A stretch of 64,000 nt of DNA from SAR324 cluster bacterium (GCA_028282885.1 JANQGX010000058.1:68078-132077); one strand, 5' to 3'; positions 1,276-54,689 are shown, numbered from the stretch's first letter. Notes: generated by a model from the letters alone, not told the origin. A program made the numbers and translations.

Positions 1276-1506
1276 ATGTCATCAATCATACAAAAAGTCG
1301 CATATCGCAAAGAGGATGCAAAACAGCTTGCCGAAAAGCTGGGGGAGCTGTTGGGGGTTCACCAACTTGAGATTACCACCAAAGATGGTACCGTGTTGAA
1401 CGGGGTTATCTCTGAAGTCGGTGAAGATTACATCTGTTTGATCGAAGGAGAATTCGACACGGTTCTGCCTATCTCAAACATACTGTTTTTTCGGTTCCAG
1501 CATTAG
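1276..1506 (+). CDS. Small hypothetical protein, 76 aa
   Basis: Intact ORF with plausible spacing after the PHP gene. No recognisable motif. Confidence 0.35.
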   Translation: MSSIIQKVAYRKEDAKQLAEKLGELLGVHQLEITTKDGTVLNGVISEVGEDYICLIEGEFDTVLPISNILFFRFQH

Positions 1507-1554: not shown

Positions 1555-2310
1555 TCACACGATGCTCTGTCCTCCATCCACAACGATCGTTTGTCCAGTG
1601 ATGAAGCTTGCGCCCTCTGATGCTAGAAACAACACCGGATGGACAACATCCGAGGGTTCCGCAATTCTGCCTGCGGGGATACCCTTACAGATCTCCTGAT
1701 GGAGTTGTTCATTTGACCAGAATGGTTCACTGAATTTCGTCTTCACCATGCCCGGAGCAACAGAATTAACCTGGATGTTGGAAGCTGCTAATTCTGAAGC
1801 CAGCACTTTTGTCATCATTTCTATTCCGGCTTTGGCAATGCCATAGACTCCCATTCCGGGTGATGATTTTCTGGCCGCCAGTGACGAAATACTAACAATC
1901 TTTCCATGTCCTTGTGTCTTCATTAATTGAGCTGCCTTTCTTGAGCAGAGGTAGGTGCCATTTAGATTTGAGTCAATGATCTTTTGCCAGAGCGCCGGTT
2001 CGGTATCTGCCAGGGAGGCTGTCAGGATGTTCATACCAACATTGTTGATTAAAATATCAAATCTCGAAAATTTTTCCTGAACCCTTTCAAACAGATGTTC
2101 AACCTCCTCCTGTCTTGCAATGTGTGCCTGGATAGCAAGCACTCGGTCTGATTGTCCCAGACTCTCCATAGCAGCGTCCAAACCTTCTTTTTTCCTGGCA
2201 CAGATGACTACCCTGGCATTTTCAACGAGCAGTTGTCGTGCGATTTCCAAACCGATACCTCTGCTGCCACCAGTTACAACAACCACTTTTTCACTCAGAT
2301 TGTATTTCAT
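1555..2310 (-). CDS. SDR-family NAD(P)-dependent oxidoreductase
   Basis: VVVVTGGSRGIG Rossmann motif near the N-terminus and an S...YxxxK catalytic region (YGIAK). The start was chosen at the internal Met, MKYNLSEK. Confidence 0.85.
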   Translation of the reverse strand: MKYNLSEKVVVVTGGSRGIGLEIARQLLVENARVVICARKKEGLDAAMESLGQSDRVLAIQAHIARQEEVEHLFERVQEKFSRFDILINNVGMNILTASLADTEPALWQKIIDSNLNGTYLCSRKAAQLMKTQGHGKIVSISSLAARKSSPGMGVYGIAKAGIEMMTKVLASELAASNIQVNSVAPGMVKTKFSEPFWSNEQLHQEICKGIPAGRIAEPSDVVHPVLFLASEGASFITGQTIVVDGGQSIV

Positions 2311-3010
2311 GCCTGTCATTTGTTTCTCCATCTTTGTGTTTTTGAAAAACCAGGAATACACCTCCGTGCCCTGATTCCATAAACCGATATGGTTTTGTGC
2401 AACATAATGTGAACTGTGACTTGAGTTCCTCCTTCACCTCATCATATTCAAGACTCCAATTTTGCCCTTTCCACAGGATGATATGTCCTCCCGGTCTAAG
2501 AAGAGGAGCACTATAAGTTAATACACCCTTTATTTGATCAAAAGCTCTTGATATAATGACGTCGTATCTCGACTTTTGTTTCTGATTTTTGACAACATTC
2601 TCCAGTCGGTCTTTTAATACAATTACATTTGATAGGCGAAGAGACCTGATAACCGTTTCCTGAAAGAGGATCTTTTTCCCGGATTTGTCCAGGGAGGTCA
2701 GGTGAATCCGGGGATCGCATATGGCGAGGATTATTCCAGGAATACCTGCACCCGATCCCAAATCCATAACACGACCAGTAAGATATGGTTGATTTGTGGC
2801 AGTGTTGTGCAGACTAAGTACTGCCAAAGCATCAAAGAGATGTTTGACAACCATTTCATTTTGAGAGCGAATTGCAGTCAGGTTTACTTTTTTGTTCCAT
2901 TTGGTTAGAAGCTGCAAAAAACCATCAAGCAGCTCAATTTTTTCCAAGGAAATATTCAATTGCGGAAACTCTTTTTCGATTTTCTCTCTAATTTGGACTG
3001 TTTTTCGCAT
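2291..3010 (-). CDS. rsmG: 16S rRNA (guanine527-N7)-methyltransferase RsmG (GidB)
   Basis: LLxxWNKKVNLTAIR N-terminal signature and the DLGSGAGIPGI SAM-binding motif. Start chosen at MRKTVQ. Confidence 0.85.
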   Translation of the reverse strand: MRKTVQIREKIEKEFPQLNISLEKIELLDGFLQLLTKWNKKVNLTAIRSQNEMVVKHLFDALAVLSLHNTATNQPYLTGRVMDLGSGAGIPGIILAICDPRIHLTSLDKSGKKILFQETVIRSLRLSNVIVLKDRLENVVKNQKQKSRYDVIISRAFDQIKGVLTYSAPLLRPGGHIILWKGQNWSLEYDEVKEELKSQFTLCCTKPYRFMESGHGGVFLVFQKHKDGETNDRHEIQSE

Positions 3011-3219
3011 ATCCCACGCATAATGACGACTAAGCGATAGAAATAACAATAAAATCGGACTTATTGTTATAAAATAACAAGCAAAAGGTCGGACGTTAAC
3101 TCTCGATACAGCAAACTACCTCTTCACAAAAACGAACTAAGAGGTAGCATAAGGAAAAAATGGGTTTGTCACAATACCATTTCTAGTAGAACACAATTGA
3201 AAGTAGACAGGAGCCGGTA

Positions 3220-5286
3220 ATGGCAAAAGAAGCTGCAGAAGATTTCGATCTGGACGGACTTGACGATTTGGATCTTGGAGATGATATCGATCTGGATTTG
3301 GATGATGATAGTTTAAATCTTGATGATGTTGATGTTGGATCATCCGATGATGACCAAGAGTCAGACGTCGATCTTGATGACAACCTTCTGGATGATCTGG
3401 ACCTGGGAGATACACTTTCGGAAGATGGTGCAATAGAGGCCGAAGCTGCCCTTTCTGTCGACGACGAATTGCAAATAGATGATATAGCCGACGTTGGAGA
3501 TGATCTCGAGGGGATGGACTTAAGCGATGACATAAACCTGGATGACTCTGCGGATCTTGGCGGCGATATGGACGATATTCCGGATATTGAGGGTGAAGTT
3601 GGCGATGCCGATCCGGATGCAGGGCTTGATGGCGATTTGGATCTGGATATGCCGGATGACGACGATATCGATCTTGACCTACCAGAAGGTGAAGATATTG
3701 ATATTGCCGGCGATGCAGATCTTGATTTAGCTGACGGGGAAATGACGGTCGATACGGACATGGACGGTGATTTGGATCTGGATCTTGGCACAGACGAGGA
3801 ACTTGCTGAAAGTGAGTTAGATTTGGGTGATACCGATATCGAGGGTGATTTGGATATGGACCTTGCTGACGATGGTGACCTGGAAACTGATCTTGATCTG
3901 GACATGCCTGAGGAGAGTGGTCTGGATGAGGAGACAGAGCTGGATCTTTCGGATGATCCCGGTCTGGAATCAGATCTGGATTTGGAAAGCAGTGATGATG
4001 AAGGAGGTGATCTCGATCTTGATGTCTCCCTGGATGGAGAATCAGATGACGATCTTGATCTGGATGTCTCCTTGGATGAAGAATCAGATGGCGATCTAGA
4101 TCTTGATGTCTCCCTGGATGAGGAAGACAGTGATGACCTTGCAGTACCTGATGACGAAATAGCTGAAGATGGGGCCGGAGATGAAATTCTGGAGTTATCT
4201 GATGACGATGAAGTTTTGGGCGAAGACGCTGTTGAAGCAGATGTTGGTTTGGATTTGGAGTTGTCTGAAGAGGAGGTAACCCTTGATGAAGATTTGGACA
4301 TGGATCTGTCGGACGAAGATGCTGTTTCCGAAGGCGATGATTTGATGATGGAAGAGGAAGAGGTGCCTGTCGAGCCTGAAGTTGAAAAGGAAGGTGAAGA
4401 TGCTCATCTGGATCTTTCATCATTAGAGGATGAGCTGGGGTTGGATGAATCAGAGATAGTAAAGGCGCCGGAAGTTGAAGAAATTAAAGATGTCGAATCA
4501 GATGATGAACTCGAAAGAGAACTGGCCAGCTTTTCCGAAAATGTAAATGGAGGTGCGGAAACAGAAGAAGACGAAGGCCTGGTGCTTGACGAGTCTATGG
4601 TTGTCCAGAAAATAGAACCGGAACTTGCCGGTGAAGAGCCAGAGGATGTCCCCAGTTTTATGAAAGACAGCGGAGAAGAGGAAAGCCTCATGGAAGAGGA
4701 AATCAGCGTAGAGGGCGATGATCTTGAATTTGATGCTGGCACAGATGAGGATCTGGATTTGACCGGGGAGGTGTTTGGCGACGATGACATCGACGAAAGC
4801 CAGATTCAAATTGAGGAAGTGGAAGATGACATGGGTGATGATGATGAAGACATGTTGAGTCTTCCGGAACTGGAAGATGACGAAGAGATTTTGGATCTTT
4901 CAGCCGAAGAAGACGATGAACCTGTTATGGTTGAAGTACATGACGATTTTGCAGATGACGCCCAGGAGGGGAGTTTCGAAGAAACAGATACATCTCAGAC
5001 CTTTGAAACAGTACCTGCCGCAACCATAGATAAACCTTCAGCCAAACCGCTGGTTGGACAGGAACTCTTATTAAATCTGAAACACACACTAACCGTAGAA
5101 ATCGGAAAATCGATCCTCAAAGGCCAGGAGATTACCGAGTTATCTTATGGCTCCGTTATTGAGTTGGATAAGAAAATCGGAGATCCGGTTGAAATCATCC
5201 TGGGTGACAAATCAATAGCCCGGGGAGAAGTGGTTCAGATCAATGAAGATCAGTTGGGTGTAAGAATCACAGGCATTAACTTCTAG
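3220..5286 (+). CDS. FliN/SpoA-domain protein with a very long polyacidic (D/E/L-rich), repeat-containing N-terminal region
   Basis: The last ~80 aa (LLLNLKHTLTVEIGKSILKGQEITELSYGSVIELDKKIGDPVEIILGDKSIARGEVVQINEDQLGVRITGI) match the FliN/SpoA C-ring domain. Residues 1 to ~600 are low-complexity DLDLD/EE repeats. There is a good RBS (AGGAG) upstream. Confidence 0.7.
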   Translation: MAKEAAEDFDLDGLDDLDLGDDIDLDLDDDSLNLDDVDVGSSDDDQESDVDLDDNLLDDLDLGDTLSEDGAIEAEAALSVDDELQIDDIADVGDDLEGMDLSDDINLDDSADLGGDMDDIPDIEGEVGDADPDAGLDGDLDLDMPDDDDIDLDLPEGEDIDIAGDADLDLADGEMTVDTDMDGDLDLDLGTDEELAESELDLGDTDIEGDLDMDLADDGDLETDLDLDMPEESGLDEETELDLSDDPGLESDLDLESSDDEGGDLDLDVSLDGESDDDLDLDVSLDEESDGDLDLDVSLDEEDSDDLAVPDDEIAEDGAGDEILELSDDDEVLGEDAVEADVGLDLELSEEEVTLDEDLDMDLSDEDAVSEGDDLMMEEEEVPVEPEVEKEGEDAHLDLSSLEDELGLDESEIVKAPEVEEIKDVESDDELERELASFSENVNGGAETEEDEGLVLDESMVVQKIEPELAGEEPEDVPSFMKDSGEEESLMEEEISVEGDDLEFDAGTDEDLDLTGEVFGDDDIDESQIQIEEVEDDMGDDDEDMLSLPELEDDEEILDLSAEEDDEPVMVEVHDDFADDAQEGSFEETDTSQTFETVPAATIDKPSAKPLVGQELLLNLKHTLTVEIGKSILKGQEITELSYGSVIELDKKIGDPVEIILGDKSIARGEVVQINEDQLGVRITGINF
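4006..4134 (+). repeat. Three tandem 42-bp in-frame repeats. Each unit encodes GDLDLDVSLD(G/E)ESD.
   Basis: Near-identical 42-nt units begin at 4006, 4048 and 4090. Confidence 0.8.
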
Positions 5287-5331
5287 AAGTAAATAAACAG
5301 GCCTTTAAGGCTCTCCATCAAGATAACAGAC

Positions 5332-6294
5332 ATGGCAGAAATCGTTGTCAAACCTTATGATATAACAAACGGTGAAAAGGTAACCTATGGCTATTACTCA
5401 GCACTGGAGGCCGTATTTCACCAGTTTACCGACAAACTTGAATCGTTTATGTATGACGAGTTCAAACTGGTTTTTGACTTCGAATTTGCCATTAAAACAG
5501 GAAATAAATTCCAGCAGGTGCTGGACGGTATTCATCAACCCTCATCGATCTTTATCTTGGGTATTTCGCCCCTGATGAGAGATTCCCTTCTCAAAGTCGA
5601 TAATCGCTATATCAATCTCATCTTAGCCAAGTCATCTCTGTTCAGAGAAGGTAAAGTGGTTGTTAACGACAGATATTCTTTAGCCGACACCAACAGCAAA
5701 GAGGTTAAAGAGCACATGGAGCAGATGTTAACATTGTTCCAGGGTAGTTGGAGCAAAATACAGGAGGTTGAATGTAGTTTGAAACGGTTGGTGTCCAATA
5801 AAATCAAAGCCAAAATCATGGATTCTACTGAATCCTGTGTTGAAGTCATTGTGACCATGAAGCAGAATAAATTTGCAGCAAACCTGGAGTTCTGCTTTTC
5901 AACGTATCAACTGGATCGGATTATTGAAAAAAGAGGATCCAGGGGACTGCTGGCCACTGGTGAAGAACAACCCTATGACAGTGGAATAAAGGAGTATCTC
6001 ACCAATCTGCTGTTAAATGAGTCCAGCTTTGAACTTAAGGGTGTACTTGGCACAATTGACCTCTCTTCAAAGGATCTGGTTGAGTCATTTGAACAGAAAA
6101 AGGTCATTCCCGTAAAAAACAGTGTGGGATCGCATGCGGTCGTGGAATTGGATAATACCCCAATTCTTGCTGCTGATATAGGCGAGACTTCCGGTTCGAT
6201 ATCCCTTCAGGTGAAGGATAGTTATTCTTCAATGGAAACAGAAAGTCAGAAGACTAAAAAACGGTTCTCACAGATCAGTTTTTCCAACAAATAG
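5332..6294 (+). CDS. FliM-like protein (CheC-like middle domain plus a C-terminal SpoA-like segment). It lacks the N-terminal CheY-P-binding peptide.
   Basis: Recalled similarity to E. coli FliM in three places. VKPYDITNGEK resembles IRPYDPNTQRR. MEQMLTLFQGSWSKIQEVE resembles INRMLKLALEGYSDAWKAINPLEVE. EVIVTMKQNKFAANLEFCFSTYQLDRII resembles the GEFNICLPFSMIEPL region. The C-terminal segment GTIDLSSKDLVESF...VVELDNTPIL resembles a SpoA domain. Confidence 0.5.
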   Translation: MAEIVVKPYDITNGEKVTYGYYSALEAVFHQFTDKLESFMYDEFKLVFDFEFAIKTGNKFQQVLDGIHQPSSIFILGISPLMRDSLLKVDNRYINLILAKSSLFREGKVVVNDRYSLADTNSKEVKEHMEQMLTLFQGSWSKIQEVECSLKRLVSNKIKAKIMDSTESCVEVIVTMKQNKFAANLEFCFSTYQLDRIIEKRGSRGLLATGEEQPYDSGIKEYLTNLLLNESSFELKGVLGTIDLSSKDLVESFEQKKVIPVKNSVGSHAVVELDNTPILAADIGETSGSISLQVKDSYSSMETESQKTKKRFSQISFSNK

Positions 6295-8060: not shown

Positions 8061-10220
8061 TCAGACAGTTCCTTCCAAAGCGCGATTTGCTTTTACTGAC
8101 TTGACAGTGTTGAGTTTGCTTAAAATTTTGTCCAGTTGTTCGGAACCATCGACTGTTATCGTGATGTCCTGAACACTTTTGTTGTCGACCAACTTCAGAT
8201 TATTCTCAAGCAGGGAGACTTTTGCTGAGGCCAGAACTTTCATGATCTGTAGATTGGTCTTTATCAGATTGTCGAATGTCAGTTTGATTCTGACAGGAAG
8301 TTTCTCCGCAGCCGATTTAATCCATTCAACCTCAACCAATCTTTCCGGATCGAAGCTCTTGGATCTGATGTTTTCACAATCAGCGAGATGCACCGAAACA
8401 CCTTGCCCTTGAGTGACAAGACCGACGATTTCGTCACCTTTAACCGGGTTACAGCAGTTCGCATATTTTACCATCATGTTCTCAATCCCCGCTATTCGGA
8501 CAGCTCTTTTTCTCTTGCTGTCATCCCTTGCAACAGCCGGCTTATGCGGTCGTTTCGAAATCTGCTGCCGTTCTGCCGGTGCAACGAACAACTGGTCAAG
8601 GTCTTCCGGATCAGCCTTACCGTAGCCAAGGTGGATAAAATAGCTGTTGATATCGGCATAACCGCCATCTGACAAGTAACGTTTTAATTCCGGAGATTTT
8701 AGAACATCGCGGGATCTTTTACCCAGTTTTGCTACTCTTTCATTGAACAGCTCCTTGCCCAGCACTTCAGCATGCTCCCTTTCTTCCTTTCTCAGAAAAG
8801 AGCGAATTTTGGCAAGAGCTCTTGAGGTCACTGCATAGTTAAGCCAATCCCTGGACGGATGCTGTTTTGATGAAGTTAACACCTCGACTTTGTCGCCATG
8901 TTTGAGCTGGGTTCTGATTGAAACGTTTCTCCCGTTTATTTTCGCACCGGTGCAGGTTTGTCCGATCTCTGTGTGTATTGCATAAGCAAAATCAATGACG
9001 CAAGCTCCTGATTGCAGCTTAACAATCTTGCCCTTTGGGGAGAAAACATAAACAAAATCAGAATAGAGCTCCCTGGTAAAGATATCCAGAGATTCCCTGG
9101 CATCGCTGGCAACATTAAGGCTGTTGATCAGATCCTGCAACCATGAGGTTCTCTCACCGGCTGTCGGAGCCTCGTTATTGTCTGCCTTGTAAGCCCAATG
9201 GGCGGCAACTCCCCTCTCTGCTATACTGTCCATTTCAAATGTCCTGATCTGGACGTCGAAACCGATACCGTCACTCGTATACACATCAATATGGAGTGAC
9301 TGATAATTATTCGGCTTGGGAAATGAGATATAGTCTTTGAAACTCTCGGTTACCGGGCGATAATGGCTGCTAATCAAGCCAAGCACCTTGTAGCATTCAT
9401 CTATATTGTTGACGATAATCCGAGTACCCAGCAGATCATGAAGGTTCTCGTAGTCGATATTGTTTCTGCGAGACTTCATGAAAATGGAATAATTATGTTT
9501 GATTCTGCCTTTGACCTTTCCTTTAATTCCGTTATGAAGAAGTAGGTTGGAAATCTCCTGGTAAAGCCGTTCCAGGGTCTTTGTATGCACATCCTTATTG
9601 TCAATGCAGAAGTCCTCTATCTCTTTATGTTCCTTCGGATGAGAATAGGAAAAACAGAGATCCTCCAGCTCTATTTTTATATGAGACAAGCCCAATCGAT
9701 CTGCGATGGGAGCGTATATCTGCAAGGTTTCCTTGGCGAGAGAGGTCATTCTCAGATTCTCCGGCCGGTTGCCTTGTCTCATTCTTACCAACCTGGCTGC
9801 AAGACAGACAAATATGATGCGGATGTCCTTTGATGAGGCAAATACCATCTGACGCATCTTTTCCGCAATCCGCTGCTTTTCATCCTGAATATCGGAAACC
9901 GCCCTGATATTGTGCATCCCGGCAATAATGCTGGAAGTCTCGCTCCCCAGCAAGTCCTCAATCTCATCTATGCTGATCTTACCTGCATCCAGAACTCCGT
10001 TCAGTAAACCCGAAACAATGCATTGAATGTCAAGTTTCAACTTGACGAGAATGCTGGCAATCTCAAGGGCGATCTGTAATTGATTTCGCGGGAAAAGCTT
10101 CAGATAAGACTGGGCTTTTGCAGCAAGAACATACGCTTTCTGGATCGGACTACAGTCGATTTTATTGTCCGTATACTCTTTAAACGTAGCAATAATCTCT
10201 TCGATTCGGATGACTTGCAT
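8061..10220 (-). CDS. relA: RelA/SpoT-homologue (p)ppGpp synthetase, RelA-type. The hydrolase HD motif is degenerate; the synthetase, TGS and ACT regions are intact.
   Basis: Synthetase motifs RIKHNYSIFMKS...YQSLH are present. The region where HD...ED is expected reads LNGVLDAG instead. Confidence 0.8.
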   Translation of the reverse strand: MQVIRIEEIIATFKEYTDNKIDCSPIQKAYVLAAKAQSYLKLFPRNQLQIALEIASILVKLKLDIQCIVSGLLNGVLDAGKISIDEIEDLLGSETSSIIAGMHNIRAVSDIQDEKQRIAEKMRQMVFASSKDIRIIFVCLAARLVRMRQGNRPENLRMTSLAKETLQIYAPIADRLGLSHIKIELEDLCFSYSHPKEHKEIEDFCIDNKDVHTKTLERLYQEISNLLLHNGIKGKVKGRIKHNYSIFMKSRRNNIDYENLHDLLGTRIIVNNIDECYKVLGLISSHYRPVTESFKDYISFPKPNNYQSLHIDVYTSDGIGFDVQIRTFEMDSIAERGVAAHWAYKADNNEAPTAGERTSWLQDLINSLNVASDARESLDIFTRELYSDFVYVFSPKGKIVKLQSGACVIDFAYAIHTEIGQTCTGAKINGRNVSIRTQLKHGDKVEVLTSSKQHPSRDWLNYAVTSRALAKIRSFLRKEEREHAEVLGKELFNERVAKLGKRSRDVLKSPELKRYLSDGGYADINSYFIHLGYGKADPEDLDQLFVAPAERQQISKRPHKPAVARDDSKRKRAVRIAGIENMMVKYANCCNPVKGDEIVGLVTQGQGVSVHLADCENIRSKSFDPERLVEVEWIKSAAEKLPVRIKLTFDNLIKTNLQIMKVLASAKVSLLENNLKLVDNKSVQDITITVDGSEQLDKILSKLNTVKSVKANRALEGTV

Positions 10221-10264
10221 GCGCCTCTTTATACACAGATTACTGTGACAAAATCAGGTTAGGC

Positions 10265-10921
10265 TTAACAATCTGCAGCGCTGTTGGATACGATTTTCTT
10301 AAATGCTTCTACCGCTTTTTCCAACACATCATTTACGATGACGTGGTCGTACTTGTCCTTGTGGCTCATTTCGCTCTTGGCATTATCAATGCGTTTTGCC
10401 AACGATTCAGGAGTCTCAGTATTGCGTTCCTCCAAACGCCGCTTCAGTTCTTCGAGTGAAGGGGGTTCTATAAAGATATACCGTGTTTGCAGTCCTTCAA
10501 TATTCCTGATCTGTAGCGCACCTTGAACATCGATGTCGAGAACAACAATCTTTCCCTGTTGCATCAACTTTTCGATCTCCTCTCTTGAAGTCCCATAGTA
10601 ATTCCCGTGAACTTCCGCCCATTCCAGGAAATCACCGTTTTTGATCTTGTTCCTGAACTCGTCGGCAGAGATAAAAAAGTAGTCTTTGGCGTGTTGTTCT
10701 CCCGGGCGCGGGGATCTGGAGGTATGTGAGACAGACAATACCAGTTTGGGAATGGATTTTTTTGCGCTTTTTATGATTGTCGTCTTTCCTGCTCCGCTTG
10801 GTGCAGAAACGACAAACAGCGTGGGCTGGTTGATCTCCATGGATCGATACAACTCTTTTCCAGTGGAAGGGTACAGTGTCAGGACAGTTTTCAACAGTTG
10901 CTGAAAACTGCCACCTGTCAT
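10265..10921 (-). CDS. gmk: Guanylate kinase
   Basis: P-loop VVSAPSGAGKTT and guanylate kinase signature. The true start may be the internal MEINQ. Confidence 0.9.
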   Translation of the reverse strand: MTGGSFQQLLKTVLTLYPSTGKELYRSMEINQPTLFVVSAPSGAGKTTIIKSAKKSIPKLVLSVSHTSRSPRPGEQHAKDYFFISADEFRNKIKNGDFLEWAEVHGNYYGTSREEIEKLMQQGKIVVLDIDVQGALQIRNIEGLQTRYIFIEPPSLEELKRRLEERNTETPESLAKRIDNAKSEMSHKDKYDHVIVNDVLEKAVEAFKKIVSNSAADC

Positions 10922-10922
10922 G

Positions 10923-11525
10923 TCATGCCATTACAACATCAATTTCATGATTTAAGGAAGTACTCAGCGTATTCCTGATAAAATTCAATGTTCCTGTTGC
11001 CGCGCTCGCGCAACCCTGACACGCTCCCTGATAGTGAATATACACCTTATCTTTTTCAATCTTGACAACCTGCAGGCCACCACCGTCAGAAGCAAGAACC
11101 GGTCTGACTTTTTCATCAAGAGTGTTTTCGATTTTATTCTGCCACTCTTCTTCCGGGTAATCACCCAAAATTATCTCATCATTTGAGTTTTTCAGCGCTG
11201 ACAGCAATTGCTCAATGCCACCTTCCACATATGAAACATCGGTGAATTTATTATCAACCAAAAGTTTTACGGATTCGGCCGTCTTTTGGTCATCACCATC
11301 CGCATACAGAATTACCTGGGCGTAGGGTGGGATTTGCGTTAGATTGGTCTTGAGATACTCTTCAGGAAACGAATAAGAACCAATCAAATGCTCGTTTGCA
11401 TAGTCCTCCTTCGATCGGATGTCCAGAATGATCGGAGGCATTTTCTTCTTTCTTTCCTTCAGGCACTGATCTGGCTTGATAGCATGCCGCGCTGCATCAA
11501 ACACGTTCTTGTTTGTAAATTTCAT
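10923..11525 (-). CDS. Rhodanese-like domain (active-site Cys replaced by Asp) fused to an Nfu/NifU C-terminal Fe-S scaffold domain
   Basis: Rhodanese fold with YADGDD at the catalytic-loop position. C-terminal GACQGCASAATGTLNFI is the NifU-type CxxC motif. Confidence 0.7.
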   Translation of the reverse strand: MKFTNKNVFDAARHAIKPDQCLKERKKKMPPIILDIRSKEDYANEHLIGSYSFPEEYLKTNLTQIPPYAQVILYADGDDQKTAESVKLLVDNKFTDVSYVEGGIEQLLSALKNSNDEIILGDYPEEEWQNKIENTLDEKVRPVLASDGGGLQVVKIEKDKVYIHYQGACQGCASAATGTLNFIRNTLSTSLNHEIDVVMA

Positions 11526-11553
11526 TTTGATATCTTCTCTTTGACGATTGCCA

Positions 11554-11748
11554 TTAGACCGCTACCGAAACCTTGCCTGAACGAATGCAACTCGTACAAA
11601 CCTTCATCGTGACGTGATTACCGTTGGGCTTCTTCACGTGAACCTTCTGCAGATTCGGTAGCCACCTCTTCTTGGTTTTATTGTGGGCATGACTGACATT
11701 GTTCCCTGTTATGGGCCCCTTGCCGCATACTTCGCATTTATTTGCCAT
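11554..11748 (-). CDS. rpmB: 50S ribosomal protein L28
   Basis: [34 protein letters not shown] is a classic L28 sequence. Confidence 0.9.
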
Positions 11749-11948
11749 TGTTATTATAACCTAGTGTTGCCTGCTATGTTAACTGACTAAATTAAAAATT
11801 ACTGCTGATCTTCCTTGGGCTCCCTCCCCTGCTTAATCCAGCTTACTTTCAGAGTGGAGAAGGTCGAACTTTCTATAAATTATCACTTTAACAGTAATAA
11901 GGTTATAGAGCAACGACTAAATTCAATAATTCAGAGCAATATCAATGG

Positions 11949-11978
11949 GAGGTAACAGGTGATAATAACCGTTACCTC
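11949..11978. terminator. 8-bp perfect inverted repeat (gaggtaac...gttacctc) just 3' of the stop of the minus-strand gene 11994..13121. Possible terminator or protein-binding palindrome.
   Basis: Seen in sequence. The T-tract is weak, hence the low confidence. Confidence 0.25.
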
Positions 11979-11993
11979 ATGTTGTAGGAATTT

Positions 11994-13121
11994 TTAAATA
12001 TGGAGACAGTTCAGGTAGGTATTGAGGAGTATTTCTCTAACCTCTTTGATAACGATATTTCTGTCAAAGTACTTTTTATCAATGTCGATCAGGTGCCAAT
12101 ATAGTCCATCCGCTATGTATTTTATCATTCCCTTGGGTTCAGTCTCTTTGAAATCCGGATCTATAATCTTTTCAATACAACCGTTGTAAAGACTGATCTC
12201 TTTTTTCATCAGGTTTGCTATCTCTTCTCTTTCGATTTTGGGGAGTTCCAGATTAAAATCGAGTTGAAAGGTTTTAAGACAGCTTTTCCAGACCACAAAT
12301 ACGAACTCTTTGTAGCTGTAATTCTGATTAAATCTCTTGATGAGATCGGCTTTCTCGTCCAGTTTTTTTAGTCTTGCTTCCTGTTCGCGTTTGAGTCTGG
12401 CACTGTTTCTGGTCGTCGCAAATCGGACGAGATCTGCAGCTTCTTTATGATTGTCTACCGCGACACCGTATTTCACATAAACTGGCTTGTTGATGTATCC
12501 TTGGTAGAGGGTTTCAAAGATTTCCTTTGAAGCACCCATTTCCATGATCAGATTCTGGAAGGAGGTGTTTAATGCGATGCCTAAGGAAGTCTGATTATGT
12601 CCTCTTTTTCGCATATCTTCCGCTTTCGATATTAACAGGTCCAGTTTATCGAAAAACCCTTCCGGGTCATGACTTCTCCGAACTGATATGCTTTGGAGAT
12701 AATCCGTGATTGTCTTTTTAATTTCATCATTCGAGAGGATGAGGAAAATACTGTGATTCTTGATGGTGCCCCTGGCCCTAACTCCTCCCTTCTCTGTCTC
12801 ATTTTCGTAGAAGCAGATGTATTTCAAAGATTTGCCATAGTTCGATACTGCAATCTGGTCGACCTTGAGTTTAACCTGCCTGAAACTGAGATTTTTCTTT
12901 ACCGGAACTTTTTCTGCATACGAGAATCCTGTTTCACTAATATCGCAGACGGCAAAGTTCTTACCCTTTACGGAGGCTTTTAACCCGGCCATTCTGTTCG
13001 TGATCAGGTCAAGCCTGTCGGCCCTACCGCTATACTTTGGATGTCCCATGGACAGCTTTTTAGCGGTTTTCTCCGGATAGAGTGTTTCAAATTTTCGATC
13101 TTGTCGTCCGTTGTTATTCAT
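11994..13121 (-). CDS. Hypothetical protein with a degenerate PilZ-like N-terminal motif (R..R ... DISETG)
   Basis: RADRLDL followed about 25 aa later by CDISETGFSY, reminiscent of the PilZ RxxxR / DxSxxG motifs but not canonical. The rest is unrecognised. Confidence 0.35.
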   Translation of the reverse strand: MNNNGRQDRKFETLYPEKTAKKLSMGHPKYSGRADRLDLITNRMAGLKASVKGKNFAVCDISETGFSYAEKVPVKKNLSFRQVKLKVDQIAVSNYGKSLKYICFYENETEKGGVRARGTIKNHSIFLILSNDEIKKTITDYLQSISVRRSHDPEGFFDKLDLLISKAEDMRKRGHNQTSLGIALNTSFQNLIMEMGASKEIFETLYQGYINKPVYVKYGVAVDNHKEAADLVRFATTRNSARLKREQEARLKKLDEKADLIKRFNQNYSYKEFVFVVWKSCLKTFQLDFNLELPKIEREEIANLMKKEISLYNGCIEKIIDPDFKETEPKGMIKYIADGLYWHLIDIDKKYFDRNIVIKEVREILLNTYLNCLHI

Positions 13122-13149
13122 TCTCTTCAGACAAAAAATTATAAGAGTA

Positions 13150-15726
13150 TTATGAAATATCAGATGGGGATAACAGTTGCAGTAGATTTCTTATGGATTC
13201 CTGCCTCATATCGGCATATTCGGCACTTCCCCCGGATCCTGAATCACTTTGAGCTCGTTGATCTGTAAGCAGTTTTAACGTTTCCCGGTGTTTTTTAATC
13301 TCCTGTACCAATTGCATGCTGTTGCTGGCAAATACATCCAGGATTTCCAGAAAAAGCTTATTGGCAACTTCGGTGCTCTCATGATTGTCCGGATGTAGAA
13401 TGGGGAGAAGGTTGAGATACGGTTTCCCGCTGGTAATGGGATTTTGTTTCTGCCAGCGCTCCTTGATGAATTCCGAAACAAGCGGGGTGAGCTGTTCAGC
13501 CAGGATATCAAGGACCGGACGTGGTTCATCTCCCGGTAGCTTGGACACTACTTTATTTAAAACAGGGATCTGATCGGTCAGTTCAAACAGTAGGTTTCTC
13601 CACCTGGTATAGGCCTGGTTTCCTCGCTGTTCGATTGACATTTCCGGGAAATCCTTGGTTGCCAAACGTAAGAAGAAGTTATAAATCCGCTTGGACAGTT
13701 TGTTGGAAACAAGAATTTCGTTCGGATCCAGTTTCAAACCGATGGTACTGCCAAGCCATCCCACGATTCTCTGGTAGTCCGTTTTTGCAAGCTTCAAGGC
13801 TTTCTGCTCGAAAATCGCTATTTTTTCCGAGCGAAGTATTCCGTTTTTTATCTCAGTCCATTCGTCCACTGCAGCATCTCTTTTTTCAAGCAAATCAAGA
13901 AGATAACTGATATGGTTGTCAATAAACCACTGCATCAACGGAAGGTGCTGTTCTACAAACACAGTATTGTCAGGGTTGGGAAATCTCTCCCAGGGAAGTT
14001 TGTTTCTTGAGACGACCATGACGAGAGAGTCTTCTTCAGTCAGCAATGAATATCTGTCTTCCTCTTCAATTCCCGGATCCTCGATTTTAGAATTCCAGTA
14101 TTCACCACCGATAGGCGAACAGGCTTTGATGGAAAGAAGCCTGTTATCCTGTTGTTTCAAGGCAATATCTCCGGTTAACGGAAACCAGATCTGGTCTCTC
14201 AATTCACTCTCCTGAATTGTATCACCTTTTTCAACGCCACAGAGATAAAAGAGATTGTTTAAGACCTGTTTGGAGAGATATTCCGTCTGAAAATTGCTTG
14301 CCTTGATTATACCAAAAAACGCCTGGGTCATTTTCTCACGCGTGAACTGGGTTCGATGCGCTTTAATCATGTTGTTATAATTTGGAAACGTGTTCTCCGA
14401 AAACTTGATGACACCAAGCGTCTGCCCGTCAATAGAAGGTGATGAATCTCGATAATGATGCACCCCACGAATAATCGTTGAGATATGACTCTTGAGTAGG
14501 CCGGGATCAATCTGTGACTTTTTATCGGTTTCGCCCAGGGATATGTTTCTGGATTTCACTTCATCCAAAAATTTCTGCATTTTAACAACTGACGAGTTAA
14601 AATTGTTTTCACAATCTGCGGCCACCAACGCACATTTCTGCCCGACTTGTGCCAGTAAACGGCGGGGATTACTGACTTTATACATCTTATAGAAGAATTC
14701 CAAATAGAGCGGCAGATTGAACTCATTTGATCTCTCCCCTTTCCCAAAAAAAGAAGATGGCGGGTTTTTTTTATTAATTCCTTTTTTTAAGAGCCTGGAT
14801 TCAAACTTTTTCTGCAATTGATTTTGCAACCCGATCAATCGCATTCGATAAATGTTGGGATTAAACAGTTCAAGATCAAGGGGAGGAATCGGTTTTTTAT
14901 CATCCGGAAGGCTTTTTGTGACTCTTGCCGATATCTCGGTCAGCGTGTTTCGCCATTCCAGTTTCATCCTGATAATATGCTTTTGATCCGTGGCGTTTTT
15001 ATATTTGTGCTCGAAATAACGTCTTAGATAGGAGTGCAACGATTTTGCGTTGATTTGGACCTGTCTTGGCCAGTCCATTCCAATTTTGGATACAACATAG
15101 CTTTGGGCTATCTTCCAGGCATCAGCATCCCAATTGGGGTCGATTCTGTTGTCGAGTTGTTTGGCGTAGATCTGTTGATTGATCGCCTGAATTGTGTTGC
15201 TGGCCTGCTCCCACAGTGATTTCTGGAGATAGATGAATTCGAACAGTCTCTCCTGTACTGTTTGAAACACATTTTCATAAACTCTTTTCTCCTGATTGAA
15301 GCTCTCATCGGAAATCGTGCTGTCCTTAAAGTCCCTGATGAAACTTCCCATAGGAATTTTGAAGACCAGAGCGGGCTGATCGCTTGAAATTCGGATTGTT
15401 GCAGCCCTTTCCGAGTTCTCGGCGATGATTCCTTTGTCACCTACCAGAGTGGGTGATTGCATTTGTACGACGACCTGATCTCCAACCAATACATCAATGG
15501 TACCGCTACAGAGAAGGAAAAAATCCCTTCCGGATTCTCCCTGAATTATGATATCCGAGCCTTTCTCAAAGAAACCGAACTCTAATTGGTCTTTGAGTTC
15601 CTGCCCCAAGGTTTCAATGCAACCACGGGTTAACGGATAGCTGTTGAGCAAGTCAATGGACGTCTGGACGGCTCTGGTATCCGTGCCTTTTAACAAGTGG
15701 TAAAGATTGGTTTCCCAATTCGACAT
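13150..15726 (-). CDS. Large (858 aa) cyclic-nucleotide-binding-domain protein. The C-terminal ~700 aa are unassigned.
   Basis: N-terminal cNMP-binding beta-barrel: FFEKGSDIIIQGESGRDFFLLCSG...GDKGIIAENSERAATIR (phosphate-binding cassette). Confidence 0.7.
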   Translation of the reverse strand: MSNWETNLYHLLKGTDTRAVQTSIDLLNSYPLTRGCIETLGQELKDQLEFGFFEKGSDIIIQGESGRDFFLLCSGTIDVLVGDQVVVQMQSPTLVGDKGIIAENSERAATIRISSDQPALVFKIPMGSFIRDFKDSTISDESFNQEKRVYENVFQTVQERLFEFIYLQKSLWEQASNTIQAINQQIYAKQLDNRIDPNWDADAWKIAQSYVVSKIGMDWPRQVQINAKSLHSYLRRYFEHKYKNATDQKHIIRMKLEWRNTLTEISARVTKSLPDDKKPIPPLDLELFNPNIYRMRLIGLQNQLQKKFESRLLKKGINKKNPPSSFFGKGERSNEFNLPLYLEFFYKMYKVSNPRRLLAQVGQKCALVAADCENNFNSSVVKMQKFLDEVKSRNISLGETDKKSQIDPGLLKSHISTIIRGVHHYRDSSPSIDGQTLGVIKFSENTFPNYNNMIKAHRTQFTREKMTQAFFGIIKASNFQTEYLSKQVLNNLFYLCGVEKGDTIQESELRDQIWFPLTGDIALKQQDNRLLSIKACSPIGGEYWNSKIEDPGIEEEDRYSLLTEEDSLVMVVSRNKLPWERFPNPDNTVFVEQHLPLMQWFIDNHISYLLDLLEKRDAAVDEWTEIKNGILRSEKIAIFEQKALKLAKTDYQRIVGWLGSTIGLKLDPNEILVSNKLSKRIYNFFLRLATKDFPEMSIEQRGNQAYTRWRNLLFELTDQIPVLNKVVSKLPGDEPRPVLDILAEQLTPLVSEFIKERWQKQNPITSGKPYLNLLPILHPDNHESTEVANKLFLEILDVFASNSMQLVQEIKKHRETLKLLTDQRAQSDSGSGGSAEYADMRQESIRNLLQLLSPSDIS

Positions 15727-15913
15727 AAGTCGGTTTCTCCTGAAGTAACAGAAATTCGACTGAAAGAGTTAGCATGCCCGAAGCGCAGGTCGGGTTGTCT
15801 TGGTTAAAATCGAATACTGATTAACTATTCCTTTTATATTCTGAATATCCCAAAGAAGGTGAATTATCAACAATGATGCTTGTAACAGTTTGAAGAGAAA
15901 AGATTTCAATGTT

Positions 15914-18535
15914 CTACGACGAAACAGCAAACTCGCGATAGGTGTTCCAGCCTTCTTCTTCTGAAGATTTAACAGCGATCAGCATTGAATTGGGTCTGAT
16001 TTTATAATCCATATCCGGTGCGACTATCACCCGATTGGGGACAAGATCCTTGACCTTGATTAGCTCTTCAACCTGACCTTTGATATTGGACTGTATTTGG
16101 GCCTGATGTATTCTTTCAGACTTTCTGGCATGTACATTTCCAGTCTCTTCCAACAGACCGACTACCATCTCTTCCGGTTTGTAGTAACCACGTAGCAGTT
16201 GTTTGAAACTGCCGTTTATGTAATCATTTGATATTTCTGAAATTCGAAGCGAGGTCTCATCGAAATTGATCAGTTTTTTAATAACCTGGGCAACACCAAG
16301 TCCATGTGAACCGTTTGATAACATTATACGAGTGAACTCGTCTTCAAGATAAATCTCTTCGACGTTTGCCTGTTCAAGTGACTCTTTGTATCTTTTGTCA
16401 AGAATTTCAGCAATCTTATAAGCTTTGCGATTAAGAGTTCCCACCATCATAGATGCCAGAACGGTCTGTGAATCTATCTCTTCGAAGGTTCTGCCCGATT
16501 CTGTCTCGGCCAGAATAATGACTTTGGTGGCTTGATAGATACCCGCCTTTTTTAATATATCACGATCGACAATATTTCCCGAGTGAAAGTCAATATCAAC
16601 ATTCTTGCCGAAACGATTCATAAAGTCGTCAATCCGTTGCTGGGGAAGGTCGGCGACAATTGAAATCTTGTTCCAATTGGTGTTGTGATTGGAATACTCC
16701 TTGATAATAAAATCTACCATTTCAGGAAGTTGGGGCTTCCAGCCACATATCATCAGCACCTGTTTCTTTTTTTCTGATCTTGGCTTGACAACGGTTTTAG
16801 CCCTGTCCAGGTCGCTGCGCAGTTTGGCCAGGCTTTTACAAGTTCTCTGGGAAGCATCGATATCTTCCTTCACACCTGAGCCTTCTCGGACGCCAGGGAT
16901 TTTGTTGAGTTCAGTGACAATCACATCGTCAATACCCAGGATTTTAAAGCTGAACTTCTTCCCTTCATATCCGACACCATTGATTCTTTTTCTATATGAA
17001 TAGAGATCCATTCCCTCTTTTCGAAGAAGGTCGAATAACGTATCCCAGTCTGGCGCTTTATCAAAGAACGTATTGACCTTTTCCTTAACCAGAGATTTGA
17101 GACTCTGTTTTTTTTCGAATAATTTCATCAGCTTGGCTAGCTGATTTGGTGGATACCCAAGTGTTTCAAAGGGATATTTTCTATTCCCGTAGATTGCCCC
17201 TTGAATCGTATTGGCATACGGATAGATTTCAACACCAACTGTTTCAAGTTTCTCGCAAACAGCTTTCCAACTATCTGTCGTCTCAACCACCGCATCCAGA
17301 TAATGTCTAAGCATCTGTTCCGGTGTTTTGGCTGAAATATCCTCCATCACGACTGTTTCCGAAAGGCTTTCACTGTCATTCAACTCTCCACCCGGCACAT
17401 TGAGAACGATCATGGAGCTACTTTCCTTGATAATATAATTAGGAGGCGGGTGAAAGACAGGGACATTGCTTCTGGTGTTCTTAAGGTCCATTAGTTCCTG
17501 AATCGCCTTTTTAATCGATACCGATTTCTGTGCCAGGTTCATTTTCTCTTGCTTTCGTTTTCTTAGATTACCAGTGTTTTCAAGCAAGCCGATGACAAGC
17601 GGTCTATCGGAACTGGATTTTAGCTCCTTGTATGTCCTCCCATTGTAATAACTATCAATGCTTTCGATACGAAGAAGCCCTTTATCCATTGAAAAAAAAG
17701 CGGAGAATACATTATTCAAGCCGGACATCAAGGCAATATTGCATAAAAGGGCCCGGGCGCTGTGTCTGTTAAGGATGATCTCTTCTACATCAACATGTTG
17801 AAGATACATGCTGAACTTGGGCTGAACAATCTCTGCAATGGTATGAATCTGAGAATTGACTCTTTTTACAGCTATGGCGGCCAGGATGGACCTGAAATCC
17901 ACTTCCTCCGCGGTTTTTCCGGATAGTTCGTCGGTAATAATGAGTACTTTGCCGGCGCTGTGGGCACAAGCGTTGAGGAGAACCTCCCGGTTGGTGTAGT
18001 CACCATGAAAATAGCATACTCCTTTTAAGAGAGGATCCTGTCTGAGATCATTGACCATTTCCGCCTTGGCGCTGTTTACCAATACCAATTGATTGGATAC
18101 CAGACGATGCAGCACCAGAATATCTTTCAACAACTCTTTCATCCCTTGCCGCCAGCCAAGCACCAGGAAATGATCTTCTTTTTTTCTGATGGGTACCAGG
18201 CCAAACACCCTCCTTCTGTTTCTTTCAACCAACCAACTGGTGATATTACCGGTTAACACGCCGGTGTAGACAATACCGATAAACATGATAATCACGGCAG
18301 CGGATTTACCGAAACTAGAGACTGGTGATAGATCTCCATAGCCAACTGTGGTAATGGTAACAATGGAAAACCAGAATGAGTTGAAGAGGTCTTTTATACC
18401 CGACCCGTCTTCAGTTGATTCCAAAAACAGCATCAAGACGGCGGCGATAATAAGGAAGCTGAAGAACCCAATTATTGTCTGGGCCGCCCCACTATTTCTC
18501 AGCCATGAAGACCATTTTTTAAGTTTTCTGATCAT
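15914..18535 (-). CDS. Potassium channel (2TM plus pore, TVGYGD filter) with two tandem RCK/TrkA-N domains in one polypeptide
   Basis: TITTVGYGD selectivity filter flanked by two TM helices. RCK1 begins HFLVLGWRQGM. RCK2 begins VLMICGWKPQ. A linker of ~300 aa lies between them. Confidence 0.85.
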   Translation of the reverse strand: MIRKLKKWSSWLRNSGAAQTIIGFFSFLIIAAVLMLFLESTEDGSGIKDLFNSFWFSIVTITTVGYGDLSPVSSFGKSAAVIIMFIGIVYTGVLTGNITSWLVERNRRRVFGLVPIRKKEDHFLVLGWRQGMKELLKDILVLHRLVSNQLVLVNSAKAEMVNDLRQDPLLKGVCYFHGDYTNREVLLNACAHSAGKVLIITDELSGKTAEEVDFRSILAAIAVKRVNSQIHTIAEIVQPKFSMYLQHVDVEEIILNRHSARALLCNIALMSGLNNVFSAFFSMDKGLLRIESIDSYYNGRTYKELKSSSDRPLVIGLLENTGNLRKRKQEKMNLAQKSVSIKKAIQELMDLKNTRSNVPVFHPPPNYIIKESSSMIVLNVPGGELNDSESLSETVVMEDISAKTPEQMLRHYLDAVVETTDSWKAVCEKLETVGVEIYPYANTIQGAIYGNRKYPFETLGYPPNQLAKLMKLFEKKQSLKSLVKEKVNTFFDKAPDWDTLFDLLRKEGMDLYSYRKRINGVGYEGKKFSFKILGIDDVIVTELNKIPGVREGSGVKEDIDASQRTCKSLAKLRSDLDRAKTVVKPRSEKKKQVLMICGWKPQLPEMVDFIIKEYSNHNTNWNKISIVADLPQQRIDDFMNRFGKNVDIDFHSGNIVDRDILKKAGIYQATKVIILAETESGRTFEEIDSQTVLASMMVGTLNRKAYKIAEILDKRYKESLEQANVEEIYLEDEFTRIMLSNGSHGLGVAQVIKKLINFDETSLRISEISNDYINGSFKQLLRGYYKPEEMVVGLLEETGNVHARKSERIHQAQIQSNIKGQVEELIKVKDLVPNRVIVAPDMDYKIRPNSMLIAVKSSEEEGWNTYREFAVSS

Positions 18536-39370: not shown

Positions 39371-39417
39371 TATCGTCAATCTTATACTGAACCACAACCC
39401 TGAGAAGCGAGCTTTTA

Positions 39418-54106: not shown

Positions 54107-54137
54107 TGCAGTGAAAGGTTGTCATATGAGAAAAGAA

Positions 54138-54223
54138 AGTGATCCGTAACGCATCTTCCAATACTTAGTGCTGCTTCCTTTCGGACCTGACACGATTCGC
54201 ACCTTCCAATCGTACGGATCACC
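54138..54223 (-). ncRNA. ffs: Signal recognition particle RNA (4.5S, small type)
   Basis: Contains GTCAGGTCCGAAAGGAAGCAGC, matching the SRP RNA domain IV consensus. It is closed by the long helix GGTGATCCGTACG / CGTTACGGATCAC. It lies immediately upstream of dnaX, as in many bacteria. Confidence 0.75.
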
Positions 54224-54229
54224 GCATTG

Positions 54230-54319
54230 TGGCGGAGAGACGGGGATTCGAACCCCGGAAACAGTTTCCCATTTACACGCTTTCCAGGCGTGCTCCTTCA
54301 TCCACTCGGACACCTCTCC
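54230..54319 (-). tRNA. tRNA-Ser (anticodon GGA)
   Basis: Hand-folded cloverleaf with long variable arm. Anticodon loop CUGGAAA. GGTTCGAATCC T-loop. Encoded CCA. Confidence 0.85.
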
Positions 54320-54378
54320 GCGTTTTCTTTGCTCCCTGGCACAGGATCTATCGATGATCCCCTCCTTCCAGGAACATG

Positions 54379-54455
54379 TGGTACACCCGAAGGGACTTGA
54401 ACCCCTGACCCCCTGTTCCGCAAACAGATGCTCTATCCAGCTGAGCTACGGGTGC
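54379..54455 (-). tRNA. tRNA-Arg (anticodon GCG as folded)
   Basis: 77 nt. D-loop AGCTGGATA. Anticodon stem TCTGT/ACAGG with loop TTGCGGA. GGTTCAAGTCC T-loop. Encoded CCA. Confidence 0.7.
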
Positions 54456-54489
54456 ATCATTCCGTTGGTGTCATCTTCCTGCAGCCTTA

Positions 54490-54579
54490 TGGCGGAGAGA
54501 CGGGGATTCGAACCCCGGGTACCCTTGCGAGTACAACAGATTAGCAATCTGCCCCATTCGGCCTCTCTGGCATCTCTCC
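54490..54579 (-). tRNA. tRNA-Ser (anticodon GCT)
   Basis: Anticodon stem-loop CAGATTGCTAATCTG. Long variable arm. GGTTCGAATCC. Encoded CCA. Confidence 0.85.
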
Positions 54580-54689
54580 GTTTTCCGCACTTCCGCTAAT
54601 ATCGCATATCGGAAGTGTGCAGTGGTTTGCTTTGAGCTTGTGGAACTATTTCAGCAGGAAGTACGACAGCATTTGATGCAATGCTATTC

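Follow-up and report, generated by a model that had tools for sequence, protein, structure and literature searches.

Introduction

The proteins closest to the locus reported here are FliM and FliN of the flagellar C-ring. The GGXG loop of FliM is its contact with FliG, as seen in co-crystals of the two proteins. FliM proteins that do not respond to CheY occur in secondary flagellar systems, where they sit in complete flagellar clusters and keep both an ordinary FliM similarity and an ordinary FliN; FliM2 of the secondary (lateral) flagella of Shewanella putrefaciens is presumably of this kind, a FliM without the CheY-binding N-terminus in a motor that CheY does not address in the standard way. 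HubP and FimV have long, extremely acidic, repeat-like cytoplasmic regions and are membrane-anchored proteins with LysM and FimV domains. The N-terminal peptide of FliM is the docking site of phosphorylated CheY (CheY-P) and, in polar flagellates, of FlhG; the extension of FliY carries an added function, an EIDAL peptide, and HubP acts at the flagellated pole, where it recruits partners such as FlhF and FlhG (PMC6946799; PMC12826062). We analyzed a stretch of 64,000 nucleotides from a SAR324 cluster bacterium (GCA_028282885.1, JANQGX010000058.1:68078-132077; hereafter the window), in which two adjacent open reading frames (ORFs), 3220..5286 and 5332..6294, encode a polyacidic FliN-like protein and a short FliM-like protein, respectively. 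The pair shows a textbook machine rewired in a real and unusual manner and is, on present evidence, most likely a derived flagellar part and not a new machine. Few uncultured bacterial lineages of the dark ocean are as abundant as SAR324, for which surveys take ‘fliM’ hits as a marker of motility.

A Short FliM-Like Protein Without the CheY-Docking Peptide

A preliminary description of this DNA, made from the sequence alone, had proposed that the two ORFs encode a FliN/SpoA-domain protein and a FliM-like protein. Both ORFs exist where it had placed them, and the Pfam profiles PF01052 (FliMN_C) and PF02154 (FliM) score above their gathering cut-offs on the first and second product, respectively. 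PF02154 covers aa 9-200 of the FliM-like protein (profile positions 1-191 of 192, E 7e-10, 39.5 bits against a cut-off of 27). The C-terminal SpoA domain is weak by sequence, with PF01052 matching aa 228-296 under the cut-off (E 9e-4, 19.6 bits).

The predicted structure is of the FliM type. The AlphaFold2 model has a predicted local distance difference test score (pLDDT) of 77.8 overall, 80-93 in the middle domain and 75-83 in the beta-rich SpoA segment. The top match of this model in a Foldseek search of the PDB is the full-length Salmonella FliM from the C-ring cryo-electron microscopy structure (8umd_C, E 1.7e-18, about 300 aligned columns). Crystal structures of FliM middle domains are matched with template modeling scores of 0.84-0.88 and root-mean-square deviations of 2.5-3.1 Å, while FliY, CheC, and CheX rank under FliM; 4FHR and 4QRM are also among the structural matches. 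The SpoA segment matches the SpoA chains of FliN and HrcQb (E about 1e-3). The CheC/FliY phosphatase motif is missing from all 50 family members, whereas two FliY controls carry it twice each. This speaks against a CheC/FliY-type phosphatase activity and marks the middle domain as FliM-type, since true FliM lacks the motif as well.

A profile of 24 relatives of the FliM-like protein was searched exhaustively against 1.84 billion representative proteins, and the best 150 matches were analyzed. They comprise a short group of 25 representatives, made up of a core family (E ≤ 1e-77) and a second tier (E 1e-45 to 1e-20), and 125 canonical FliMs ranking below it, which served as the comparison group. 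The short representatives are about 294-333 aa long. A peptide of the LSQxEIDxLL type is found in none of them, compared to 79 of the 125 canonical FliMs, and the median number of residues ahead of the PYD column is 7 in the short group and 36 in the canonical one. The preliminary description had the gene start exactly where the CheY-binding peptide LSQAEIDALL would end. The peptide is indeed absent, but the loss goes further, as the window protein starts at the counterpart of Salmonella FliM residue ~29-31 (the family profile at ~31), so that the linker is gone as well. A normal CheY-binding N-terminus produced from an upstream start is excluded by in-frame stops directly 5′ of the ATG at 5332, with which no longer FliM-like N-terminus can be made; the start position is shared by all 24 relatives in the alignment.

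The FliM-like protein also lacks a second hallmark, the GGXG loop, a feature that had been missed before. In the alignment of the family profile, the canonical loop FGGDGRF faces ‘LkKekkv’. At the other end of the protein, the family has a basic C-terminal tail (Table 1) with a net charge of +3; its F312 never varies, and K310 and F317 hardly do. This tail is kept in the marine orthologue.

A FliN-Type SpoA Domain Behind a Polyacidic Tract

The C-terminus of the FliN-like protein (residues 616-686) matches PF01052 with an E-value of 7.4e-16 and 58.3 bits against a gathering score of 23.8. This SpoA domain shares ~55% identity over 74 residues with Thermotoga maritima FliN (1o6a, E 3e-14); other PDB matches are Salmonella FliN (8umd_D, E 9e-10) and YscQ-C, the latter at just 6e-4. 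The curated NCBIfam equivalog for FliN (TIGR02480) is not reached (61.8 bits against a cut-off of 84.05), and NF005995 (FliY) and NF006272 cover just the SpoA end. We take the hydrophobic FliH-binding patch of FliN to be L68, A93, V111, and V113; in an alignment to Salmonella FliN the window protein reads I, I, V, and Q at these positions, which is suggestive only.

The remainder of the protein is unlike FliN. A typical FliN has about 100-170 aa and a short N-terminal region, and the canonical FliN hits in the same search have 108-176 aa, compared to 688 aa for the window protein and 289-758 aa for its orthologues. No CheC, CheX, or FliM domain was found by Pfam in the 688 aa. The gene lies next to its fliM-like partner, as expected of fliN, though in reversed order and outside any flagellar operon.

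The first 600 residues consist of 44.7% Asp and Glu (27% Asp, 17% Glu), 14% Leu, and 1.2% Lys and Arg, with a net charge of -261. By a simple pKa model, the isoelectric point (pI) is 2.9 for the whole protein and about 2.5-2.9 for the tract. AlphaFold2, run on a shallow alignment of 16 sequences, gives aa 8-613 no secondary structure (pLDDT below 50), followed by a beta-rich C-terminal domain. Orthologues have tracts of about 200 to about 680 aa, always with 30-48% Asp and Glu and at most 6% Lys and Arg. The preliminary description of ~600 residues of D/E/L-rich repeats with a pI below 4 thus holds for composition and pI but not for the repeats: Tandem Repeats Finder detects just two short tandem repeats (42 bp in 2.8 copies and 24 bp in 2 copies), and the tract is therefore mostly compositionally biased, low-complexity sequence.

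Two parts of the tract stand out by conservation. The N-terminal acidic-hydrophobic segment (3220..3300) shares 60-78% identity among orthologues of the window’s clade, compared to about 40% for the remaining tract. Related N-termini are also present in marine forms; the marine forms of ~400 aa have a median identity of 81% and are too alike to judge the conservation of their N-terminus. The second part is an island at aa ~395-440, which is nearly invariant in 10 orthologues, some of them with FliM-like partners that are just 41-43% identical. It is present in the window’s clade and some relatives, and its core motif occurs in 8 of 21 FliN-type proteins, compared to 0.02 expected from shuffles. 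The island is non-repetitive and has no Pfam match and no structure predicted by AlphaFold2; smaller conserved islets follow at about aa 454-525. Conserved islands within a disordered tract are typical of docking motifs, and the sequence therefore suggests that the island is a candidate docking motif in the acidic tail.

The tract was also scored for an EIDAL peptide with a position weight matrix built from 80 canonical FliM peptides, using shuffles as controls and a FliY control, which scores 30.5 bits. A degenerate EIDAL at the N-terminus of the FliN-like protein was ruled out by negative scores (shuffle p 0.05-0.9). Inside the island there is a marginal match, with a shuffle p of 0.29 in the window protein and of 0.008-0.04 in three relatives.

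The composition of the acidic gene leaves other traces in the window. The antisense ORFs 3137..4423 (-) and 3183..4301 (-), of 428 and 372 aa, are low-complexity artifacts and not genes; they arise because the coding strand of the acidic gene is rich in GAT and GAA, and they would encode proteins with 46% Ser or with an abundance of Pro, His, Arg, and Leu. Likewise, the strong positive GC skew at 2001..6000 (0.08-0.22) is due to the GAT, GAA, GAC, and GAG codons of this gene and should not be taken for a replication signal.

Conservation of the Pair Across SAR324

The order FliN-like then FliM-like, which the preliminary description had noted as the reverse of the canonical one, was confirmed at all loci. 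It is found in about 15 organisms and at least eight neighborhoods, always as a stand-alone two-gene unit with the polyacidic SpoA protein encoded immediately 5′ of the FliM-like gene at every locus read. The FliN-like protein has 574-758 aa in the window’s clade, 289 aa in a marine clade (with a gap of 11 nt to the FliM-like gene), about 400-450 aa in a second marine clade, and 362 aa on a 2.46-Mb contig with dsrC and qmo-type genes. Further lineages encode proteins of 418 aa and 546 aa as well as partial ones. The SpoA domain of these orthologues is 57-87% identical overall and 68-87% identical within the window’s clade. Between the window and the marine orthologue, the FliM-like proteins are colinear from end to end, with 24% identity, compared to 57% for the FliN SpoA domain. 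Intact ORFs of constant length, invariant residues, and the conserved SpoA domain and tail motifs indicate that the pair is under purifying selection and not in decay.

Related loci occur in species-representative genomes titled ‘SAR324 cluster bacterium,’ ‘Deltaproteobacteria bacterium’ or ‘bacterium.’ One second-tier representative heads a 90%-identity cluster with 411 marine members, which are named ‘FliM/FliN family flagellar motor switch protein [SAR324 cluster bacterium]’ by NCBI and ‘flagellar motor switch protein FliM’ by JGI. From these titles and names we conclude that the short FliM-like protein is a SAR324-wide family. Public annotation of the pair is generic (‘FliM/FliN family,’ ‘FliM,’ ‘FliN/FliY’ or ‘hypothetical’), and the proteins of the window’s clade are mostly labeled ‘hypothetical protein’ by the Prokaryotic Genome Annotation Pipeline (PGAP). 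No paper was found in the literature that describes the architecture of a polyacidic FliN with a short FliM.

Locus Context

The pair is flanked in the window by rsmG and a B12 radical-SAM gene. The preliminary description had noted no fliG, fliL, fliOPQR, flh or che gene among the neighbors; none is present in the whole 64 kb, where we found no type III secretion system (T3SS) gene either. The neighborhoods vary by clade (rsmG/B12 radical-SAM/relA; MAPEG/mgtE; relA/TPR; GAPDH/MCP; a pilin gene). Adjacency to rsmG is seen in the window’s clade and in the related loci L018 (8954-9673) and L022 (6026-6730), and not at the marine loci. In a close relative (locus L003, 1..4453), a che cluster lies 4-10 kb 5′ of the pair and comprises cheX, a STAS gene, cheR, cheB, cheY, and a CheA-CheW fusion; the window starts too near the pair to show the equivalent region.

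The pair is probably transcribed as one bicistronic unit, because the 45-nt spacer contains no terminator-like site. A weak sigma-70-like site is located at 3123-3150, 5′ of the acidic gene. A partly conserved element, CTAAAG..(G/T)AGCATAG, is found about 85 nt 5′ of the acidic gene in the window and in L003, L008, and L009; it fits the sigma-54-like GG-N10-GC spacing in L008 and L009 only. The features of the locus are listed in Table 1.

Table 1. Coordinates of the fliN-fliM-like pair, its domains and motifs, and its upstream flank, counted from the first nucleotide of the window.
Feature	Position	Strand	Remarks
rsmG/gidB, divergently adjacent (context only)	2291..3049	-	PF02527, E 2e-44
Divergent intergenic region, presumed promoter region of the acidic gene	3050..3219	.	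Between rsmG and the FliN-like gene
Polyacidic FliN-like gene	3220..5286	+	688 aa; PF01052 match; orthologue directly 5′ of the FliM-like gene at every locus examined
Polyacidic tract, predicted disordered	3220..5019	+	aa 1-600; composition and AlphaFold
Conserved N-terminal acidic-hydrophobic segment MAKEAAEDFDLDGLDDLDLGDDIDLDL	3220..3300	+	Identity among orthologues
24-bp tandem repeat, 2 copies	3264-3310	.	Tandem Repeats Finder
42-bp tandem repeat, 2.8 copies, encoding (G)DLDLDVSLDEESD units	4009..4125	+	Tandem Repeats Finder, 88% matches, score 185
Conserved island in the acidic tract HLDLSSLEDELGLDESEIVKAPEVEEIKDVESDDELERELASF	4402..4539	+	aa ~395-440, ~45 residues; candidate short linear binding motif
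FliN-type SpoA domain	5065..5277	+	aa 616-686; PF01052, 58.3 bits
Intergenic spacer	5287..5331	+	45 nt; gap of 11-124 nt at orthologous loci
Short FliM-like gene	5332..6294	+	320 aa; PF02154, E 7e-10; in-frame stops directly 5′
FliM middle domain (CheC-like, non-catalytic)	5356..5931	+	aa 9-200; PF02154, AlphaFold, Foldseek
Loop aligned to the canonical GGXG; reads AKSSLFREGKVVVND, motif absent	5620..5664	+	Hidden Markov model (HMM) alignments to Vibrio and Salmonella FliM
C-terminal SpoA-like domain of the FliM-like protein	6013..6219	+	aa 228-296; weak PF01052, model, Foldseek
Conserved basic C-terminal tail of the FliM-like protein YSSMETESQKTKKRFSQISFSNK	6223..6291	+	Family conservation

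Elsewhere in the window, a PilB-like T2SSE ATPase and a PilC-like T2SSF platform protein, of type IV pilus or type II secretion type, are encoded at 37949..40602 (+). They form the sole other module related to motility or secretion in the 64 kb. Upstream of the pair, at 1276..1506 (+), an ORF of 76 aa without Pfam match is kept right after a PHP-domain gene in the window’s clade (also in L003, 5759-5989, and L005, 6800-7030). The downstream block 8061..18535 (-) is syntenic in all loci of the window’s clade; it encodes RelA/SpoT, a guanylate kinase, a rhodanese-NifU fusion, a 375-aa protein without Pfam match, an 858-aa protein with a cNMP-binding domain, and an 873-aa K+ channel with RCK domains. 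At 54132..54775 (-), a small signal recognition particle RNA (54132-54226) adjoins four tRNA genes (Ser-GGA, Arg-GCG, Ser-GCT, and Ser-TGA).

Discussion

A Probable Derived C-Ring Pair

We consider it more likely than not that the pair is SAR324’s own, strongly derived lower C-ring FliM/FliN, encoded as a stand-alone fliN-fliM bicistron. The pair is homologous to FliM/FliN and probably works like it, yet it stays below the equivalog scores of the curated families, has neither the EIDAL peptide nor the GGXG loop, and exceeds the size of FliN.

The literature describes SAR324 as equipped with flagellar genes. A hybrid assembly from single cells and metagenomes contains 23 of the 32 KEGG flagellar-assembly genes (PMC4749706), these genes were reported as ‘scattered throughout the entire genome’ with FleN present (PMC4782131), and a deep-sea metaproteome contained SAR324 flagellin spectra, described as ‘frequently detected’ (bioRxiv 10.1101/310524). 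One survey marked ‘fliM’ as present in 24 of 24 SAR324 genomes, even where cheA, cheW, and cheY were marked as missing (PMC9031357, supplement), and an HMM screen of metagenome-assembled genomes (MAGs) from oxygen-deficient zones was positive for fliG, fliM, and fliNY in all six distinct SAR324 MAGs read (PMC10359470, supplement). The motility assigned to SAR324 in such surveys depends on HMM or RAST hits to fliM, fliN, and fliG. Since annotation pipelines give the short family the name fliM, the ‘fliM’ marker of these surveys probably is the short FliM-like gene, and the fliM and fliN hits in SAR324 are probably the atypical pair.

The preliminary description had favored an orphan module repurposed away from the flagellum and had offered, as its alternative, a highly derived C-ring in an organism with scattered flagellar genes. 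It is the alternative that is better supported, because the pair is kept phylum-wide and both scattered flagellar genes and flagellin are reported for SAR324. The che cluster near the pair in a relative also favors a derived C-ring. The pair would thus appear as an ‘orphan’ because the flagellar genes of SAR324 are dispersed, and not because a flagellum is absent.

Several observations weigh against this interpretation. The FliM-like protein lacks both hallmarks of FliM, the CheY peptide and the GGXG loop. The latter is a property of the group and not of the window alone: GGxG is found in the aligned loop of one of the 25 short representatives, compared to 98 of the 125 canonical FliMs. The loop that replaces it is basic in the window’s clade and acidic in the marine clade and hence, not being conserved within SAR324, is unlikely to be a conserved interface. 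The FliM-like protein is an extreme outlier, matching solved FliMs by profile with an E-value of just about 1e-8 and the equivalog TIGR01397 (fliM_switch) with 77.9 bits against a cut-off of 219.6, in an alignment that begins at profile position 33 of 320. At the genomic level, the pair is beside no other flagellar gene in any of the eight contexts (no fliG, fliL, fliOPQR or flhA), and no convincing or conserved match to a sigma-28 or sigma-54 flagellar promoter was found 5′ of the pair. Finally, the table of PMC10359470 shows fliG as positive in several lineages without fliM and fliN. This column is soft evidence, because FliG is related to the N-domain of MgtE and the column may include MgtE cross-hits.

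Alternative Explanations

The alternative that survives best, to which we give tentative and limited credence, is an accessory or repurposed paralogue. Canonical fliM and fliN would then be located elsewhere in SAR324, leaving the pair to serve as another SpoA/FliM-like scaffold. It might form a polar hub, control the assembly or number of motors, or provide a platform for a different machine such as type IV pili, with the acidic tail as an interaction surface. Much of the evidence given above can be read in this way: the extreme divergence from canonical FliM with the loss of both hallmarks, the loop without conservation between SAR324 clades, and the much faster evolution of the FliM-like partner than of the FliN SpoA domain (24% compared to 57% identity). 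The pair is always apart from flagellar genes and often beside housekeeping genes such as rsmG and relA, ‘fliM’ persists even in SAR324 genomes scored without chemotaxis genes, and there are PilB/PilC-like genes in the window and a pilin gene near the pair in L024. No conserved linkage to another machine exists across the eight contexts, however, and the SpoA domain is a very good match to FliN. The streamlined marine SAR324 genomes retain the pair, and a scattered arrangement of flagellar genes has already been reported for this lineage. Nor did a second SAR324 FliN or FliM surface in searches that were not exhaustive by taxon. Among 80 SpoA homologues, all those labeled SAR324 are long and acidic and no second FliN is present, which proves little as the search was not restricted by taxon; with the same limitation, none of the ten best canonical FliM matches checked is from SAR324 (Thermotogota, Bacillota, KSB1, or unnamed). 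A single-protein scan of genomes found no second SAR324 FliM/FliN and no FliG, and an alignment scan gave orthologues only.

It is very improbable that the flagellum was lost in the window’s non-marine clade and that the pair is a decaying or functionless remnant. The absence of flagellar genes from the 64 kb and the name ‘hypothetical’ given by PGAP to the proteins of this clade would fit such a loss, but the FliM-like ORFs are intact, constant in length (317-323 aa), and share invariant residues at identities of 24-69%, the SpoA domain is strongly conserved within the clade, the tail motifs persist, and a close relative has a che cluster near the pair.

A SctQ-like sorting platform of a non-flagellar T3SS, which the preliminary description had also considered, is effectively refuted: SpoA domains are common to SctQ and the FliN-like protein weakly matches TIGR02551 (SctQ), but with 54.9 bits far under the cut-off of 100.8, the match to FliN is far better than that to YscQ-C, the partner has a FliM (CheC-like) middle domain for which FliM structures rank first, and no T3SS gene is present in the window or at any related locus.

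Proposed Mechanism and Significance

If the pair is the derived C-ring of SAR324, its two SpoA domains would form the base of the ring in the manner of the canonical FliM:FliN3 unit. About 34 such units would place about 100 polyanionic tails around the motor base as a charged brush. This brush may carry short docking motifs, with CheY-P, the ATPase FlhG/FleN, and FliH as candidate partners. The present data neither favor nor oppose cation binding or electrostatic tethering, which the preliminary description had suggested for the acidic domain. Input from chemotaxis or assembly, for which the N-terminus of FliM is the usual docking site, would enter elsewhere, possibly through the FliN tail in the manner of FliY-type proteins; for docking moved to this tail, the EIDAL test is negative at the N-terminus and marginal for the island.

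A bolder proposal, which we regard as unlikely, has two forms. Either the FliN tail is a new signal-input or organizing device, with about a hundred arms of 200-680 residues per C-ring and an island that has taken over the docking of CheY-P and/or FlhG from the FliM peptide, or the pair is a non-flagellar, phylum-specific SpoA/FliM-like scaffold beside a canonical switch. In the case of an input device or a scaffold, the control or re-use of the C-ring in SAR324 would have no described counterpart in any model organism.

If the pair is a real switch, SAR324 motors operate without the two best-known interfaces of FliM (the CheY/FlhG peptide and GGXG) and with a very large polyanionic FliN brush, and represent a natural experiment on the rewiring of switching, assembly checkpoints, and CheY input. 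If it is an extra paralogue, ‘fliM-positive’ calls overstate the flagellar motility of SAR324, and C-ring parts have found a new use. In each case, two genes and one conserved motif make a compact, testable target.

Comparison With Known Systems

The canonical FliM-FliN pair (E. coli and Salmonella; 8UMD, 8WIW, and 9N49) provides the closest sequence and structural matches of the SAR324 pair. Both have a FliN-type SpoA domain, a FliM-type middle domain followed by a SpoA domain, and adjacent genes. They differ in gene order, which is reversed in SAR324, and in location, as the SAR324 genes are detached from fliL and fliOPQR. The SAR324 FliM has no equivalents of residues 1-~30 and GGXG but has a conserved basic C-terminal tail, and the SAR324 FliN has an acidic disordered tail of 200-680 aa in place of the canonical N-terminus of ~50 aa.

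FliY (Bacillus, Thermotoga, Leptospira, and Epsilonproteobacteria) is likewise a SpoA C-ring protein much longer than FliN. The FliY extension folds as a CheC-like domain, in many cases with phosphatase motifs and a true EIDAL, whereas that of the SAR324 FliN is disordered and polyacidic, without a CheC domain or a significant N-terminal match to EIDAL. Compared to the FliM proteins of secondary flagellar systems, the SAR324 pair is isolated and far more divergent, and its FliM is paired with a polyacidic FliN. In SctQ, SpaO, and YscQ, SpoA domains also build a cytoplasmic platform, but the SAR324 pair does not have the SctQ-type architecture. HubP and FimV resemble the acidic region of the SAR324 FliN by analogy only and not by homology, since this region is fused directly to a C-ring SpoA domain.

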